Positions 14,991-24,559 of a stretch of 24,958 nt of DNA are shown piece after piece. The notes beneath the pieces are model-generated. The model made no database searches and was not told the origin of the DNA. It saw only the letters and a list, made by a program, of their open reading frames with translations. Made by a program: the position numbers and the translations under genes. Position 1 is the first letter of the stretch; every line of letters begins with the position of its first letter. Source of the stretch: a virus (Duplodnaviria; Caudoviricetes); the IMG/VR virus record IMGVR_UViG_3300037522_000162, positions 1 to 24,958 of that record; one strand, written 5' to 3'.

Positions 14991-15437
14991 GTGATCCTGT
15001 CCCCGAACGAGATGGCGTGGTGCCTGCTGCAGGCGGGATTCACACCCGAGCAGGCCGAGGTGGGTGTGGCGGTCGGGCTGGCCGAGTCCGGCGGCGATAC
15101 TGAGGTGCTGGGTAAGCGCGCCACAACCGACCCGGCGTACGGCAACCACGACCACGGCTGGCTGCAGATCAGCAACAAGTGGCACGCCGCGAAGATCCAG
15201 GCCACCCCCGACTGGCGTGACCCGGTCGTGAACGCCCGGCTGGCCAAGCAGGTGTTCGACGAGACCGAGCGGATCCATCGCAGCAAAGGGTTGGTGCCGG
15301 ACGGCTGGAAGGCGTGGGCGGTGTACAACTCGGGCAGTCACGCGAAGTATCTGCCGGCCGCGGACTTGGCGATGGCCGCCCCGTGGCCGCCGCCGCGCAC
15401 CACCCGGTCGATGCTTAGTCGGTTACGTCAGCGATGA
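14991..15437 (+). CDS. Lytic transglycosylase / lysozyme-like protein (SLT-like)
   Basis: AVGLAESGG (catalytic Glu), DHGWLQI, DPVVNARLA, GWKAWAVYNSG. Confidence 0.85.
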   Translation: MILSPNEMAWCLLQAGFTPEQAEVGVAVGLAESGGDTEVLGKRATTDPAYGNHDHGWLQISNKWHAAKIQATPDWRDPVVNARLAKQVFDETERIHRSKGLVPDGWKAWAVYNSGSHAKYLPAADLAMAAPWPPPRTTRSMLSRLRQR

Positions 15438-15443
15438 GCCGGT

Positions 15444-15659
15444 GTGATGGCCGTCGTGCGCCGTAGGGCGCTTCGCACCATCCGCGGCGCGGCACCTGAC
15501 CGCGGGGTGTGCACGGTATGCGGGCGGGAGCGGCCGCTGGCGTTCGCCACCGGTTACATCAAACGGCACCGCGTCAGCGGGCAGCCGTGCCCGGGAGGTG
15601 CCCGGCCGCCTGCTGGGTCGGCGGCCGAGCAGACCGTACGCACCGACGAGCGACTCTGA
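15444..15659 (+). CDS. Small basic Zn-ribbon-like protein
   Basis: CTVCGR...GYIKRH......CPGG (C-x2-C...H...C). Confidence 0.65.
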   Translation: MMAVVRRRALRTIRGAAPDRGVCTVCGRERPLAFATGYIKRHRVSGQPCPGGARPPAGSAAEQTVRTDERL

Positions 15660-15677
15660 GCGGGGGGGAGCAAATGC

Positions 15678-16076
15678 GTGGAGATTCCAGAGTGGTCCAC
15701 CCTCATTCCCGGCGCAGGATTTTTCGGGCTGCTGGTCTTCCTAGTCCTGCATTTGATGCGTCAGGCGTCCGGTGACCGTGGCGATTACCAAAGTGTCTTA
15801 CGCGATCTTCGCAAGCAGCACGCCGATGAGATGAAGGAAGAACGCGAGCAGCACGCCGACGATATCCGCGAGATCACGGCTCGCCACGACGCACAGATCC
15901 AGGACTTGCGTTCACAGATAGGTGTCCTGCGCGCTGAGGTCATCGACCTGCGTGAGGACGTCGAGCAGGAACGCAAGGCTAGGTGGGCCGCCGAAGACGC
16001 CGCCGCCCGCTATCGGCGCATGATCAACGGCGTCGGTGATGTCGTGGAAGAGGGCGGGGTCAATGATTCGACGTAA
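15678..16076 (+). CDS. Membrane protein, N-terminal TM plus long coiled coil (lysis cassette accessory)
   Basis: Hydrophobic [19 protein letters not shown] followed by charged helical repeats; RBS GGAG. Confidence 0.8.
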
Positions 16077-16746
16077 CCCGCTGCCCACCAGCCGCAGCCA
16101 CCGGCTCACGATCATTCTGCTCGCTCTGCTGCTGTTGCTGGTCGGGTGGATCCTGTTCGACCGGTCCACCTCGCAACGCTCGGCTCAGCTGGCTACCGAC
16201 AACGCCGCGTCGATCGCCGCTCAGGTTCGGGCCGCGTGCGAGCGCCGGGGTCTGACCGCGATAGAGCTCGGGGATCTGTGCCGGCAGGCCGAGGAAGTGG
16301 AAGAACGGCCGGCCGAGATCATCCCCGGCCCGCCGGGCCCACCTGGACCGCCCGGCAGGGATTCCACCGTTCCCGGTCCGACCGGCCCGCGAGGCTTCCC
16401 CGGCTCGATGGGAATCCAAGGCCCGCCCGGGCCGCCGGGCGCCAGCGTCGAAGGCCCGCAAGGCCCCGCCGGGGAGAGCGTCCAGGGGCCACAGGGGCCC
16501 GCTGGAGAGCCCGGTGCGCCCGGGCCGCAGGGTGAGCCGGGAGAGTCCATCGTCGGCCCTCCTGGACCCGCTGGTGCGGACGGCGCGGACGGTCGCGGCA
16601 TCGCCTCGGTCAAGTTCGTCAACGGCGGCGACTGCCGCATGGTCATCACCTACGACAAGCCTGATGCGAACGGAGATACCGAGCAGGTGATCGGCGGGAT
16701 GCCCGCGAGCATGTGCAAGACCGAAGAGGCAGCGCCAACCGAATGA
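16063..16746 (+). CDS. Membrane-anchored collagen-like protein
   Basis: [20 protein letters not shown], helical segment with Cys pair, interrupted Gly-X-Y run (about 16324-16599), C-terminal GRGIASV...C domain. Confidence 0.85.
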
Positions 16747-18174: not shown

Positions 18175-18630
18175 ATGGCCTGGACCGCATCGGGACTGTA
18201 CTACCTGACCTTCCGTGATCTCCTCGACACGTCCGGTCTTGTGCTCAACCTAGACCTGGAGACGCACAAGCTGGCGCTCTACACCAATACCGAGACGCCG
18301 AACTTCTCCACTGAGACCGCGTACGCGACGCCCAATGAGGTGACCGGCACGAACTGGGCGGCCGGCGGTGTGGCACTCACCGGCACGACAGTGTCGGAGT
18401 CGCCGGCCGGTTCGCTGATGTTCGACGCGACCGATGTGTCCGTGGCGTCCACTACGTTGCCCGGTGTGCGTGGCTGCAAGATCTATGCTGACGCGCTGAC
18501 GACACCAACAGCGGATGCACTGATCGTCGGGGTGAACTTCGGCGCCGACTACGCGACGACGAATGGCACGTTCGCCATTGCGTGGGCGGGTGCGGGCATC
18601 TTCGCCATCGACTTGACGCCAGGCGGATGA
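18175..18630 (+). CDS. Virion structural protein of fibre module (minor tail component)
   Basis: KLALYT, NEVTGTNWAAGGVAL, FDATDV, NFGADY.TTNGTF.I.W...GIF: pattern I recognise from phage proteins that head fibre gene clusters. Confidence 0.7.
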   Translation: MAWTASGLYYLTFRDLLDTSGLVLNLDLETHKLALYTNTETPNFSTETAYATPNEVTGTNWAAGGVALTGTTVSESPAGSLMFDATDVSVASTTLPGVRGCKIYADALTTPTADALIVGVNFGADYATTNGTFAIAWAGAGIFAIDLTPGG

Positions 18631-18818
18631 TCGTTTCCCGCCGCGGATTCGTCCTCGGCATCGTCGGCGTGATCGTCACGCACCACCGCCCGAACCACAG
18701 GGGCGGGCCGACGCCGACCCCAACCCCGACGGAGCCGCCGGCATGGCCAGCGTTCGTGACAGGCCGGTCATTCGTCGGCGGCCCCGACCTGGTCGGCGGA
18801 AACCTGACAGGAGGCTGA
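18627..18818 (+). CDS. Small protein, 63 aa: twin-arginine-like N-terminus, PT linker, Gly-rich C-terminal motif
   Basis: ATGA overlap; MIVSRRGFVLGIVGVIVTHHRPNHRGGPTPTPTPTEPPAWPAFVTGRSFVGGPDLVGGNLTGG*; ends 2 nt before next gene. Confidence 0.65.
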   Translation: MIVSRRGFVLGIVGVIVTHHRPNHRGGPTPTPTPTEPPAWPAFVTGRSFVGGPDLVGGNLTGG

Positions 18819-18820
18819 GC

Positions 18821-19483
18821 GTGGCTGCTCAATATCCCAGTACGGTGCCCAGCTTCTCGGGAATGGTTGGCACATCAACCGACCCGTTGTCCGCACCGAG
18901 CCACGTGACGCTCGAGCAGAAGCAGGCCGACGAGATCGTGGCGCTAGCCACACTCGGTGGCGGGCTCAAGCACCAGTTCGGCTCGGGCCTGTGGTATTCG
19001 CCGCCGTTCATGGCATCCATCTCTGCGCAAACCAACTCAGTCGGGGATGTGCGGCTGTTCCGGATGGACTTCCCGCCGGGCACCACGGTCACCGGCCTGG
19101 GCATCAACGTCGCCACCGGCGGTGCCGCCGGGGCAACCAAGACGCTGCTCATCTACAACGACAACGGAACGAGCTCATATCCGACGACGTTGCAGAAGGC
19201 GACCGCGGCGCTGGACACGACGACGGCCGGAGTCAAGTCCGAGACTTTTACGGCTGAGGATGTCAGCGGTGTTCGCTGGATCGGCACGCTGACATTGACG
19301 GCAACGTCGCTCCTGTCCGGCTGCTCGAGCGGCCTGTACGCCGTCGGCGCGACCAGCATCGCCATTGCCAACGTGGTGTGGTCCGGCTATATCCAGACTG
19401 GGCAGTCCTCGGCTCCTGCCACATTCACGTCGACTCGGACGCCGATCAACGGCCTGGACCGGGTCTTCGTCCAAATCGGCTAG
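18821..19483 (+). CDS. Putative tail fibre / receptor-binding protein, 220 aa
   Basis: RBS GGAGG, GTG 18821; N-terminal YP....F...DPLSAPSH...DEIVAL anchor-like segment followed by a beta-sandwich-like domain. Confidence 0.65.
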   Translation: MAAQYPSTVPSFSGMVGTSTDPLSAPSHVTLEQKQADEIVALATLGGGLKHQFGSGLWYSPPFMASISAQTNSVGDVRLFRMDFPPGTTVTGLGINVATGGAAGATKTLLIYNDNGTSSYPTTLQKATAALDTTTAGVKSETFTAEDVSGVRWIGTLTLTATSLLSGCSSGLYAVGATSIAIANVVWSGYIQTGQSSAPATFTSTRTPINGLDRVFVQIG

Positions 19484-19492
19484 GAGGCGGCC

Positions 19493-21085
19493 ATGCCGTT
19501 CAAGATCCCCAATGTTGCCGGACTCACCCATGCCGGTCAGGCCCGGGTCACCGAGACCGACTTCGACATCATCGCCGCCGGCATCCACGACTATGGCATC
19601 AACACCGGTTGCCAGGTCACCACCACCGGTGCCGCCAACGGATCCGTCACCGTCGCTACAGGCATCGCGTTGGTCAACGGCGTGTACGTCAACATCGTCG
19701 CTGGGAACGTGGCGCTCAACGCCAACGCCAGCGGAAACGATCGCATCGATCTCATCACCGTCGACGACATCGGCACCGAGGCTGCGGTCGTAGGTACCCC
19801 CGGCGCAGTGCCCCTGCTGCCGGACATCCCGTCCGACCGCACTGTGCTCGCCGCGGTGTACGTGCCCAACGGGTTCACGACCGGCACTACTGTCACCGCC
19901 GACCAGATCGTCGACAAGCGGGTGTTCCAACGCACCGGCGACTTCCAGGGCCACAATGTCCTCGACTATGGCGCCGTCGGCGACTCCAGCCACGCCACCT
20001 TCGGCGCGGGCACCGACGACACGGCTGCCATCCAGGCCGCGTACACCGCAGCGCAGGAGGCCGGCGGGTTCGGCGTGGTCGTGTTCCCCGGAAACCGTAC
20101 CTATCGCATCACCGACACCATCGAATGTCAGACCGACCTGACCAAGCAGTCGGTATGGACCTGGGGCGTCGGATCAATGGGATTCAACCGGGTCGTGAAC
20201 ATGCCCAACATCGCGTGGGGCGGTGCCGCCGGTGGCACTATGTTCAACTCCGAAGCGTCTGGGCCGAACCTGCAAGCCGCGCTGTTCCGCAACGTACGCT
20301 TCGCCGGGCTGAACGTCGCCAATACTGCGATCCGCTTCGGCCCTTCCGGCACCAACTTCGCGAAAATCGACACCGGCACCGGACTTGACGAGGTCCACAT
20401 GGGCGCCTTTGCCGGCAACGGCATCCAGATTGACAGCGTCGGCGCAACAAACTTCTGGATTCGCGGTGGTCGATGGGACCGCATCGCTGGATATGCCATC
20501 TATATGAAGGTCGCCAGCCAGACGTTCGTGTCGATCCGTGACGTTACCTGGGACGCCTGGGACGCGATCCTGGTCGACGCGGCCAAGGGGTTCGTCCACT
20601 TCGACGCCGGAGTCCACGCCATCGAGGGCGCCAACAACACCCACTATGTGATGGCCCATTTTGACGGAGTCCACTTCGAGTCCGGTGGACTGTCCGACCA
20701 AGTGCCAACCGCCAGCGAGACGGCAGGTCGTCGCGGGATCATCAAGTGCACGATCGACAACACCGAGGTCATCGTCCAACACAAGATCGCGATGACGAAC
20801 TGTCAGGTCCTCGGCTGGAACAGCGGTGACGACTCGCATTGTCTGATCCAAATGGACGGCGGCGCGAGCGACGCCGAGCGCAAGGCGCGGTTGAACTTCA
20901 ACGGTCGCAATCTGTTCGGCTTCAACGGTGACGGGTCAGCGGCCACCGGGCATGTGATCCCGTTCGGGAACATGGGCCTGACTAACCCCGATCCGGGGGA
21001 CGAGTATCAGGAGTTGACACACCGGTTCTCCGGTGGCGGCGTCACCGCGAGCCGCTATCCGCGAGTGTGGAACAACACCGCCTGA
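19493..21085 (+). CDS. Tailspike-like protein with pectate-lyase-3 / parallel beta-helix domain (putative depolymerase)
   Basis: NVLDYGAVGD...DDTAAIQAA...GVVVFPG..YRIT motif after an N-terminal anchor domain (GCQVT, VTVATG, RIDLI); RBS AGGAGG. Confidence 0.85.
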   Translation: MPFKIPNVAGLTHAGQARVTETDFDIIAAGIHDYGINTGCQVTTTGAANGSVTVATGIALVNGVYVNIVAGNVALNANASGNDRIDLITVDDIGTEAAVVGTPGAVPLLPDIPSDRTVLAAVYVPNGFTTGTTVTADQIVDKRVFQRTGDFQGHNVLDYGAVGDSSHATFGAGTDDTAAIQAAYTAAQEAGGFGVVVFPGNRTYRITDTIECQTDLTKQSVWTWGVGSMGFNRVVNMPNIAWGGAAGGTMFNSEASGPNLQAALFRNVRFAGLNVANTAIRFGPSGTNFAKIDTGTGLDEVHMGAFAGNGIQIDSVGATNFWIRGGRWDRIAGYAIYMKVASQTFVSIRDVTWDAWDAILVDAAKGFVHFDAGVHAIEGANNTHYVMAHFDGVHFESGGLSDQVPTASETAGRRGIIKCTIDNTEVIVQHKIAMTNCQVLGWNSGDDSHCLIQMDGGASDAERKARLNFNGRNLFGFNGDGSAATGHVIPFGNMGLTNPDPGDEYQELTHRFSGGGVTASRYPRVWNNTA

Positions 21086-21097
21086 TCGGGGGATGCC

Positions 21098-22228
21098 GTG
21101 ACGCTGACCCTGGTCGCCACGCCTACCAGTTACCAAGCTTCCGCTAACAGCGTCAGTTCTGCTTTCCCTTCCGGCTATTCGGTCACCGCCGACGACCTGG
21201 CCTGTCTGGTCGTCATGTCCAAGCATCGCACCGAGACGAATGGTCCATCCGAACCGAGCGGCTGGCCCCAGGTGGGGACCGGGCTCGGCGGCATCACCGG
21301 CTCCGGCGTTGATCAAGGCAAGATTCGCATCACCGTGTTCGAGCGGGTTTTGCAGGCCGGCGACGCCGCGCCCAGCGTCGGTCAGCAAGGCGGCCAGGGG
21401 AACTTTCTGGCCGCCGCCATCTATGTGTTCCGCAAGAGCGCGGCAGGCACATACGAGACCGTGCTGGACGTGCTGTCCGAGGAGACCGCGGGAACGTCCT
21501 GGTCCGAGGTGATGGCCGGGGTACCGGACTGGCTCGCCGACGATCATCTGGTGCTGCCGTCCGGTGCGCGAACCGACTCGGTCACCGGGTTCACGGTGGG
21601 ATCACTGACCGCCACCGGGCTAACGATCAGCGCGATCACCGAGGACTTCGACGCCGGCACCACTCAGGGTGACGACGCGCGGCTGACCAGCGCGCGCGCC
21701 ACGGTCACCGCGGGGCCGCCGACGGTGGCGCCGACCCGGGCGCTGACCATCACCGGCGTGTCCTCGGCCGGGGCGATGGGCATCCTGCGCGTCCGGCACG
21801 TGGCCGCCGGCGAGAACGCTTCGATCGACGCAGTCACCGTCGCCGTTGCAGCATCGGTGCCGTCGGTACTCGTGTCGACGGGAGAGGCAGCATCAGCGTT
21901 CATCGTCGGATCATCGATGGTCGGTAGTGGCGACCAGCTCGGTGTCGGCGGCACGACCGACGAGGACGCCTGGCTGTTCCCGCTGGTCATCGCGGCGCGG
22001 GCCACGATCCCGACGCCACTGCTGTGGGGTCCACCGTCGGGGCTTACGGCGACCCCGCTGTCGAGCTCGAGCATTCGGCTGACGTGGAATGCGGTATTGG
22101 CCGCGGACGGCTATGACGTGGAACGCGACGGCGTCGTAGTGGCGCAGAGCGTGATCGGCACCCAATACGACGACATCGACCTGGCCGCGTCCACAGAGTA
22201 CGACTACAGGGTGCGAGCCGTCCGATGA
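21098..22228 (+). CDS. Fibre-module protein with C-terminal FN3 domain lacking its last strand
   Basis: N-terminal beta domain (DDL..LVV, PSGW), two 22-aa fibre repeats, then PPSGLTATPLSSSSIRLTWNAV..ADGYDVERDG...YDDIDLAASTEYDYRVRAVR*. Confidence 0.8.
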   Translation: MTLTLVATPTSYQASANSVSSAFPSGYSVTADDLACLVVMSKHRTETNGPSEPSGWPQVGTGLGGITGSGVDQGKIRITVFERVLQAGDAAPSVGQQGGQGNFLAAAIYVFRKSAAGTYETVLDVLSEETAGTSWSEVMAGVPDWLADDHLVLPSGARTDSVTGFTVGSLTATGLTISAITEDFDAGTTQGDDARLTSARATVTAGPPTVAPTRALTITGVSSAGAMGILRVRHVAAGENASIDAVTVAVAASVPSVLVSTGEAASAFIVGSSMVGSGDQLGVGGTTDEDAWLFPLVIAARATIPTPLLWGPPSGLTATPLSSSSIRLTWNAVLAADGYDVERDGVVVAQSVIGTQYDDIDLAASTEYDYRVRAVR

Positions 22229-22557
22229 GATGGCGCATCTTCTACGGCGACGGATCGACGTTCTCCGACGCCGACGGCCCGCCGTCACAGGCTCCCGCAC
22301 TGAACGTTCAGATCATCATCGTCCGTGACGATGACCCGAACAGCCAACTTGGGCGGTACCCGGTGCACCGGTTCGACTACTACTGGTGGGACGATCCGGA
22401 ATGGTTCGGCGGCGACTTGTTCGGCCTGTTCGACTATCTGGCCCGCCCCGGCGACAAGCGGGTGCTGTTTGGTCGGACGATTGCCAACGCTGACCATCAG
22501 GCGATTATTGATCGTGCGCTGGCCGACCCTGACATGATCAGGAGGCCGAGTCGATGA
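22225..22557 (+). CDS. Hypothetical protein, 110 aa, possibly a fibre assembly factor
   Basis: ATGA-coupled on both sides; WRIFYGDGSTF..DG...AP, DYYWW, GLFDYL, VLFGR; aromatic/acidic globular composition unlike the neighbouring fibres. Confidence 0.75.
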   Translation: MRWRIFYGDGSTFSDADGPPSQAPALNVQIIIVRDDDPNSQLGRYPVHRFDYYWWDDPEWFGGDLFGLFDYLARPGDKRVLFGRTIANADHQAIIDRALADPDMIRRPSR

Positions 22558-24290
22558 CCCATATCAATCCGAACTCGGCACAAGTCGGCTTCCGAGGCCG
22601 AGCGGATGACACGGCCCTGCTCAATGCCGCATTCGGCGGTGGAGATCCCGCGCTAAATACGGGCTGGTCGCAGGATGCCGATGTAATCTTCCGGGTTCGG
22701 TTCGCGGTAGAGGAGAACGCGGGCGCGGAAGCCGTCGTAAGCGGTCAGCTCGAGGCGAATCTGAACGGTGGCACATTTCAAAATGTCACCACTACCTCAA
22801 CGATCGTCAAGGCTGTCGCATCATCGCAGTTCGCCGACAACGACACGACGTCGGATCTTGCCCTCGGCGGCGCTGGTGGCTTCGTCAGCGGCCACGGATC
22901 AGAGACTGGCAATCCAACCGATATCGCACTGACCAGCCAGCACACCGAGTTTGAGTATGCACTACAGATCGTCGGTGCGGATGTCGCCAACGGCAACACA
23001 ATCGTAGTCCGGCTGGCCGGTTTGAACAGCTATACGGTTGCCGGCCCGACGCTGACCGTCACCGGCGTGGCCCTGAATGCCACCGTGGAGCCGTCCGTGG
23101 TCGCCGCGGTGGCCTCGGTCCCGGCTCCGACCGTGATCGTTCCGGTGCCAGCCGGGGCGTGGGGTTCGTCGGTCACCACGTGGGGCGACGCGACTCGGTC
23201 CTGGACGGGCACGACTCTTGACGCCGGTGGCGCCACAGTTACCCCGGCCACCGTGCAGGCTGCGGCGAGCATCGGTTCGCCAACGGTCCGCGAACTGTCG
23301 GAATGGTCCGACGTCGTGTCGGCGACCACCGAGGCGGAGACCTCCGGAGACGCCACCGTCACCCCGGCACGGGTGCTGGCCACGGCGCTCATCCCGGCAG
23401 TCACCGTCACCGTCGGGGTAACCGTCTCCGCGACCACCGTCGCCGCATCATCGTCCGTCGGCGCGCCGACAGTCGAAGCCGGCGGCGCCGCCAACGTCAC
23501 ACCGGCCACCGTCGCAGCCGCAGCCTCGATCGGCGCACCAGCAGTGTCGACCGGGGCGGGCGTTCAACCAACCACGGTCGCCGCTGCGGCGTCCATAGGC
23601 GCGCCGATAGTCACCGTCGGTGGTTCCGCCACCGTCGAGCCTGGCGTGGTCTCAGCGACCGCCACAGTGCCAGCGGTGACCGTTTCTGCCGGGTCCACGA
23701 CCGCACCAGATACCGTCGCCTCCACCGCCGCGATTCCATCGGTCACGATCTCGGCAGGATCGACGGTCTCACCGGCCAGCGTGACGGGCACGGCCACCAT
23801 CGGCACACCGACGCTGTCCGCCGGGACCACCGTCACACCCACCGCCGTGGCCGGCACCGCATCGGTCCCGACGCCTGGCGTGTCTGCTGGCGGATCAGCG
23901 ACCGTCGTCCCGGCAACCGTCACTGCGACGGTCAGCGTCGGCAGCCCGGCCATCATCACCGGGCAGACCATCACCGCGACCACGGTCGCCACAACGACCA
24001 CCATCCCGGCGCCGACGGTGACCGGATCGGTGACGATCGCGCCGAGCGTCGTAGCGGCGACGACGAGCCTCCCAGCACCGACCGTGACTACGACCGGCGA
24101 CGTGCTCATCACCCCGGCGACGATCACCGCGACCGCCAGCATCCCGACGGTGGTCATCGAGGCCGGCGTCCTGACCACACCGCCAGAACGTATGCTCGTC
24201 GTCCCTGCCGAAAACCGTATTGCTGTTGTTCCTGCGGAAGCTCGCATAGCTATCGTTCCTGCGGAAGTGAGAGAGTCGGTGATCGCGTGA
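22554..24290 (+). CDS. Long Thr/Ala/Val-rich repeat fibre protein, 578 aa
   Basis: RBS AGGAGG; N-terminal beta domain (FRVRF, TEFEYALQI), about 14 repeats of ~22 aa, C-terminal RxxVVPAE repeats. Confidence 0.8.
   Translation: MTHINPNSAQVGFRGRADDTALLNAAFGGGDPALNTGWSQDADVIFRVRFAVEENAGAEAVVSGQLEANLNGGTFQNVTTTSTIVKAVASSQFADNDTTSDLALGGAGGFVSGHGSETGNPTDIALTSQHTEFEYALQIVGADVANGNTIVVRLAGLNSYTVAGPTLTVTGVALNATVEPSVVAAVASVPAPTVIVPVPAGAWGSSVTTWGDATRSWTGTTLDAGGATVTPATVQAAASIGSPTVRELSEWSDVVSATTEAETSGDATVTPARVLATALIPAVTVTVGVTVSATTVAASSSVGAPTVEAGGAANVTPATVAAAASIGAPAVSTGAGVQPTTVAAAASIGAPIVTVGGSATVEPGVVSATATVPAVTVSAGSTTAPDTVASTAAIPSVTISAGSTVSPASVTGTATIGTPTLSAGTTVTPTAVAGTASVPTPGVSAGGSATVVPATVTATVSVGSPAIITGQTITATTVATTTTIPAPTVTGSVTIAPSVVAATTSLPAPTVTTTGDVLITPATITATASIPTVVIEAGVLTTPPERMLVVPAENRIAVVPAEARIAIVPAEVRESVIA
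23073..24167 (+). repeat. About 14 degenerate ~22-aa repeats, consensus ATVTPATVAAxASIxAPTV
   Basis: Counted by eye, from LNATVEPSVVAAVASVPAPTV to DVLITPATITATASIPTVVI. Confidence 0.8.
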
Positions 24291-24559
24291 GCATCTACAT
24301 CAAGGACCCCGATGCTGTGCTTGATTACGGCCGCGACTGGGTGGACTGGCTCGCCACCGGCGATAGCATCACCAGCCACAGCGTGGCGGTCGAGTCCGGC
24401 AATGTGGTGAAGGACTCGGACAGTCTGGCCGGCACCATAGTCAGGGCATGGATCTCTGGCGGCACCGAAGGCACCGACGCCACCGTGCGGTTCCGGGTCA
24501 CCACCGCGCAAGGCCGCACCGACGACCGCACCATCTACCTGAAGGTGCGCAGTCGCTAG
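24287..24559 (+). CDS. Fibre-tail adaptor-like protein, 90 aa
   Basis: GTGA overlap; MSIYIKDPDAVLDYGRDWVDWLATGDSI...WISGG...VTTAQGRTDDRTI..KV, the KDP..LDY..DW family. Only this end of ORF-track 23303..24559 is plausible. Confidence 0.8.
   Translation: MSIYIKDPDAVLDYGRDWVDWLATGDSITSHSVAVESGNVVKDSDSLAGTIVRAWISGGTEGTDATVRFRVTTAQGRTDDRTIYLKVRSR

Follow-up and report, generated by a model that had tools for sequence, protein, structure and literature searches.

A divided FN3 domain in a siphovirus-like genome

Why should a phage gene stop before its last domain is complete, and why should the missing strand lie inside a neighbouring gene? This question is raised by the window analysed here, a stretch of 24,958 nucleotides from a viral genome (IMG/VR record IMGVR_UViG_3300037522_000162). 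The late-region genes encode a portal, prohead protease, capsid, connector, tail tube, tape measure protein and holin, and are those of a siphovirus-like phage. The capsid protein has its best cultured match in Mycobacterium phage MooMoo (56%) and the G+C content of the window is ~65%, both of which point to a likely actinobacterial host. Between a putative endolysin and the holin lie an SLT_3 lysozyme-like gene and a collagen-repeat gene (14991-16746). Downstream of the holin is a module comprising a 151-aa gene (18175..18630), two more genes and four genes designated A, B, C and D; the 151-aa gene and genes A to D, with all their features, are on the + strand. As relatives suggest, the reading frame at 18743-19483 probably starts near 18830 (GTG, VAAQYP) and not at 18743. 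A 530-aa protein (19493-21085) with a weak pectate-lyase-like match (E 1e-4) is kept in close relatives and is a possible tailspike.

Protein A (21098..22228; 376 aa) consists of a head domain (21098..21799), two rope-type repeats (21818..22021; repeat 1 at 21818-21883, a 30-aa insert and repeat 2 at 21974-22021) and a C-terminal FN3 domain, the acceptor (22031..22225). The head, a candidate receptor-binding domain in the first-pass annotation, yielded no match in Pfam or PHROG and no credible PDB match; alignment places it in a family that recurs N-terminally in rope-module proteins. The FN3 domain has strands A-F, with a Trp in B, a Tyr in C and a Tyr in F. As the first-pass annotation had read it, the translation ends EYDYRVRAVR and is followed directly by TGA, and this stop codon after F leaves no seventh strand, G, in the same chain. 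Pfam fn3 (PF00041) matches aa 312-375 of A over model positions 2-69 of 84 (E 7.6e-5) with 23.3 bits, which lies below the curated cut-off of 25 that the relatives L056 and L024 pass.

Protein C (22554..24290; 578 aa), a putative rope, carries a head, 2 repeats, an orphan strand G, 12 further repeats and a C-terminal triple motif. The strand missing from A was indeed found at 23292-23330 (ELSEWSDVVSATT), in the frame of 22554-24290, and Pfam fn3 gives no match in C, in agreement with the earlier statement that C holds no other FN3 sequence. Together with a conserved Arg, the strand makes up the donor (23289..23330; R-x-x-S-x-W-S-x-x-V-S-A-T-T), a single internal strand between repeats at aa 246-259 of 578. 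Aligned to an HMM of 350 intact FN3 domains, A spans positions 3-65 of 87 and the C peptide, weak alone (E 0.006), spans 69-85; the two pieces complement each other and leave 3 residues uncovered at the F-G turn. Moreover, a matrix made from 22 in-cis G strands, taken from intact FN3 domains of other, unrelated loci, ranks position 23298 first of the 37,468 six-frame positions in the window, at 19.6 bits against 14.3 for the next. Therefore, the likeness of the C peptide to strand G is more than chance.

Gene B (22225..22557; 110 aa) lies between A and C and has 65 homologues, none of them named; the first-pass annotation had passed over it, as it had the 12 later repeats of C and the gp77-like gene D. 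It was found in 9 of the loci searched and is missing from several split-FN3 loci, among them L052, L056, L058 and L062; gene B is not required for the FN3 split. One relative (L002:5614-6333) has an extra reading frame between A and B, and there the split is undisturbed. In comparison with the close relatives L003-L005, the C head and gene B (22554-23070) are more divergent than their neighbours on either side, A and the rope, as if they were perhaps exchanged as a cassette among close relatives.

Acceptor and donor are conserved and occur together

The first-pass annotation had allowed for a split that is unique to this genome. This is not the case: acceptor and donor co-occur in at least 13 clusters (70% identity), counted with L058/L059 and L028/L029 as duplicates, and in one held-out locus. 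A profile HMM built on the truncated domain was searched against the window and a further 44 loci, drawn from viral, metagenome and genome collections. Its scores are bimodal: 30 domains, from 28 loci, reach at least 85 bits, and 55 domains do not exceed 59 bits and are mostly ordinary FN3 domains with strand G in cis. All but one of the 30 high-scoring domains end no more than 4 residues after strand F, with varied tails of 0-4 residues; the exception, in L061, continues into an apiosidase-like domain without a G strand. None of 1,387 FN3 domains in 120 multi-FN3 proteins ends within 6 residues of F. Pairwise identity among the 28 aligned acceptors has a median of 47%, and a 70% threshold divides them into 22 clusters; the N-terminal parts of the acceptor proteins range from ~200 to >1,000 residues. 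In L061 (10195-12951) a single 918-aa chain holds the donor, then the acceptor, then the apiosidase-like domain; this chain could complement itself, link head to tail with others of its kind or serve an upstream 1,144-aa acceptor.

Of the 28 acceptor loci, 19 have an orphan G strand within an adjacent repeat protein, on a list compiled by hand from matrix scans and locus inspection. The donor is present in every acceptor locus with more than 5 kb downstream (12/12), and the 9 donor-less loci have less than 4.6 kb. The independent matrix ranks the donor first in 17 of the 19 loci (2 of them ties) and second in L051, and the L028 donor was found by eye. The donor forms an insert of 15-19 residues that separates two repeats, though the repeat units differ completely between loci. 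Across 20 aligned donors, R is kept in 19 (K once), W in 19, S in 18 and TT in 18, and the flanks vary. Arg is outside the 8 commonest residues at the corresponding position of 851 intact FN3 domains. The number of pieces also differs, L062 having two acceptors and two donor-like strands and L056 one acceptor and three donors.

A further 80 viral loci were chosen by the 151-aa putative bead gene alone (best 80 of 99). A repeat (rope) protein is present in 61 of them, nearly always with a 22-aa period, and here the two halves co-occur strictly: 4 rope loci carry both acceptor and donor and 57 carry neither (Fisher p 2e-6, treating loci as unrelated). One 16.6-bit donor match on a short minus-strand frame was counted as noise, true donors scoring 28-42. 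Three of the four loci with both halves are training relatives, whilst the fourth, L076, was held out and is positive for both.

These counts bear on the explanation that the halves do not bind at all, with the A-F domain folding alone, homodimerising or taking a strand from the host or from elsewhere in the virion, and the peptide being a relic of rearrangement. The weakest case for a functional pair, L024, fits this, there being no rope gene within 3.6 kb after its acceptor. A relic would nevertheless not be expected to retain R, W, S and TT in ropes whose repeat units are unrelated, to occur in two or three copies in some ropes, or to be absent from 57/57 rope loci that have no acceptor, and we regard this explanation as unlikely.

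Among the 80 loci chosen by the bead gene, a second cut in FN3 was found in L069 (5666-7978), L080 (10469-15190) and L109 (10475-14335). In these loci the head protein ends after strand C (A-B-C) and the rope holds internal C'-E-F-G half-domains, in two copies in L080 and L109. Two further matches of the second-cut query carried intact domains.

Strand exchange that follows cleavage at an Arg is known from type V pili. Similarly, C could be cut at the conserved Arg before the donor binds, so that A would continue the C-terminal part end to end in an unbranched fibre. Arg or Lys does precede the strand in 20/20 donors and is rare there in intact FN3, and the layout of A in the window group resembles that of the C portion which cleavage would set free. 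However, a salt bridge would account for the conserved Arg as well, three donors in one rope (L056) would mean fragmentation, and the second cut type likewise uses an internal half-domain. Moreover, apart from the prohead protease and an M23 domain carried by the tape measure protein, nothing protease-like was seen. Such cleavage is thus quite improbable.

Repeats probably do not pair A and C in register

In the window, A and C have the parallel layout that had been described: a 22-aa repeat, an insert of 29-30 aa, a second repeat and then FN3 strands A-F (A) or strand G (C). No homology was detected between the N-terminal heads of the two proteins (local score 41 against a shuffled mean of 40). 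C has 14 repeats in all, with a spacing of mostly 22 or 24 aa, and the 12 that follow the donor (23352..24167; 22-24 aa each) form a predicted bead-docking stem. From this layout it had been proposed that A and C co-assemble in register through their shared repeats, zipping into a two-chain stalk locked by the FN3 domain. The window group suits the proposal, since 2 repeats with a matching spacing of 50-51 aa precede both halves (2/2 before FN3/before donor in the window, L020 and L049), and A and C share a repeat type within most loci. However, the counts are unequal in most other relatives: 2/4 in L051 and L054, 12/5 in L052, 2/5 in L053 and L061, 2/3 in L055, 0/(2,3,10) in L056, 1/2 in L058, 3/1 in L060, 7/13 in L028 and 11/6 in L021 (L030 is cut and L062 was left uncounted by the script). 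Furthermore, the same repeats occur in the 57 rope loci without a split FN3, so that most ropes have no such partner, and a shared repeat type is also expected if both proteins bind the same bead. This part of the first-pass annotation was therefore not borne out, and pairing in register is very unlikely. It is more plausible that the repeats serve gp80-like bead dimers as docking sites.

Joining of the halves at the DNA or RNA level (excision, splicing or a ribosome hop) into an intact FN3 is largely refuted and highly improbable: GTCCG stands at both ends in the window and a join would be in frame, but the junction letters and the tails (0-4 residues, varied) are not conserved among acceptors, the donor precedes the acceptor in L061, the joined product would miss part of the F-G turn and, as a weak point, the listed contigs of 4 related runs contain no such joint.

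Putative bead and adaptor genes of the module

The 151-aa protein (phrog_644) is predicted to have a gp80-like fold, similar to that of whisker proteins, and is the putative bead subunit; the beads of L052, L053, L056, L059, L060, L062 and L033 belong to Pfam Gp80. Bead type and repeat type vary together: phrog_644 members accompany Pro-containing 22-aa repeats (L063-L142), and Pfam Gp80 beads accompany repeats of 20-21 aa (L052, L053, L056, L058, L060 and L062). Gene D (24287..24559; 90 aa) encodes a gp77-like fibre-tail adaptor, matching Pfam Gp77 (E 4e-26) and PDB 8jou_D (E 5e-10). The triple motif at the C-terminus of C (24180..24287), a 9-aa unit with V-P-A-E-x-R, is the likely anchor for this adaptor. 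Among 58 complete ropes, L121 alone has both a C-terminal V-P-A-E-x-R motif and a gp77 homologue and 57 have neither, the motif having been chosen after L121 was seen. At 24180-24559, close relatives (L003-L005) swap the rope C-terminal tail and the following adaptor-like gene together.

The bead family extends to the satellite phage MiniFlayer (OQ357865; L170:5186-10334), whose gp6 is a member (E 1e-28) and whose gp8 resembles a rope with LamG domains and without FN3; the gp6/gp8 module may form the fibres with which, in the account of PMC10690885, the satellite grips the neck of its helper. The cultured Gordonia phage Orchid (KU998253; L171:6944-9028) has a bead (gp37) and a repeat protein (gp38) with no FN3, and is a tractable model of the basic rope-and-bead module.

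A predicted branch point on a rope-and-bead fibre

Given that relatives keep the split, and that acceptor and donor occur together in different clusters, completion of the FN3 domain in trans, as first proposed for this locus, is likely to be the function of the split; the physical binding itself is a prediction. We consider it likely that A docks on C in this way; it would then form a lateral branch on a predicted rope-and-bead fibre of GP4 type. C would be the rope, held to gp77-like adaptors by the triple motif at its C-terminus. One bead dimer would bind to each repeat of 20-24 aa, and beads would coat the repeats of both proteins. A has the same repeats and no anchor tail, and would be attached to C by accepting strand G into its own FN3 domain. 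In an FN3 domain the N-terminus and the F-G loop share one pole, so that the N-terminal parts of both A and C would emerge from one side of the joint and the 12-repeat stem from the opposite side, giving a Y-shaped fibre tip that bears two different heads. The number of branches on each rope would depend on its donor count.

In principle the joint would resemble donor-strand complementation in chaperone-usher pili, in which an Ig-like domain without strand G takes it from the N-terminal extension of another chain; the subunits polymerise, and a chaperone and an usher are needed. Similarly, A has a domain without strand G and the strand lies in another chain. In contrast to the pili, the donor is internal, between repeats, and the fold is FN3, and no chaperone or usher gene was found among the 29 window proteins scanned (the contig may be incomplete).

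Fibre I of GP4 consists of a gp77 adaptor, gp80 dimers and a rope, and the whiskers of Bas63 and Sf14 and the fibres of A1002 are likewise chain-like, with the rope completing the incomplete beta-sandwiches of the beads (PMC13730344, PMC12609058). In A1002 the rope has about 226-268 residues for 11 dimers (PMC13730344), by our own arithmetic 21-24 residues per dimer. Like these fibres, the window has a gp77 homologue, a predicted gp80-like bead and a long rope with ~20-24 residues per unit. Whereas they have one rope each in these accounts, the window has a second repeat-bearing protein that likely branches off via the split FN3, and its module lies in a siphovirus-like genome, unlike those chain-like fibres. 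The word fibronectin occurs in neither PMC13730344 nor PMC12609058. A1002 also has a split nozzle that is completed by strands in trans (PMC13730344), and a different bead-chain neck fibre is the subject of PMC10966104.

The first-pass annotation did not know the arrangement as a described phage mechanism. This holds for an FN3 branch point on a rope fibre, none having been found in a literature search that covered few subscription papers. It does not hold for completion in trans as such: in Lactococcus phage Tuc2009, a C-terminal BppU hairpin of 25 residues completes the beta-sandwich of BppA domain 2, the composite being titin-like (PMC4742702). As there, an accessory head protein would hang on a structural protein that completes its C-terminal beta-sandwich; the BppA head is carbohydrate-binding-like (PMC4742702). 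The donor differs, being a C-terminal two-strand hairpin in Tuc2009 and a single internal FN3 strand, in 1-3 copies per rope, in the family of the window. The predicted split-FN3 joint combines two known principles. Moreover, a natural 14-residue internal tag that is predicted to complete a 65-residue domain could serve as a protein-assembly pair.

On balance, we lean slightly towards a broader view in which widespread uncultured siphoviruses build rope-and-bead fibres that branch like a tree from a kit of plug-in parts. If so, orphan FN3 pieces between rope repeats would be sockets, the heads would be separately encoded, freely swapped and terminated by the partial FN3 that fits, the number of inserts would program the branches, and the joint would have arisen at least twice in one module, with cuts between F and G and between C and C'. 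Known rope-and-bead fibres are described as single ropes; an encoded branch point would explain several variable heads per attachment site, as well as the exchange of heads by recombination without touching the anchor. It would also provide a rule by which a large class of unannotated repeat-rich tail genes may be read, as rope, bead, adaptor and branch.
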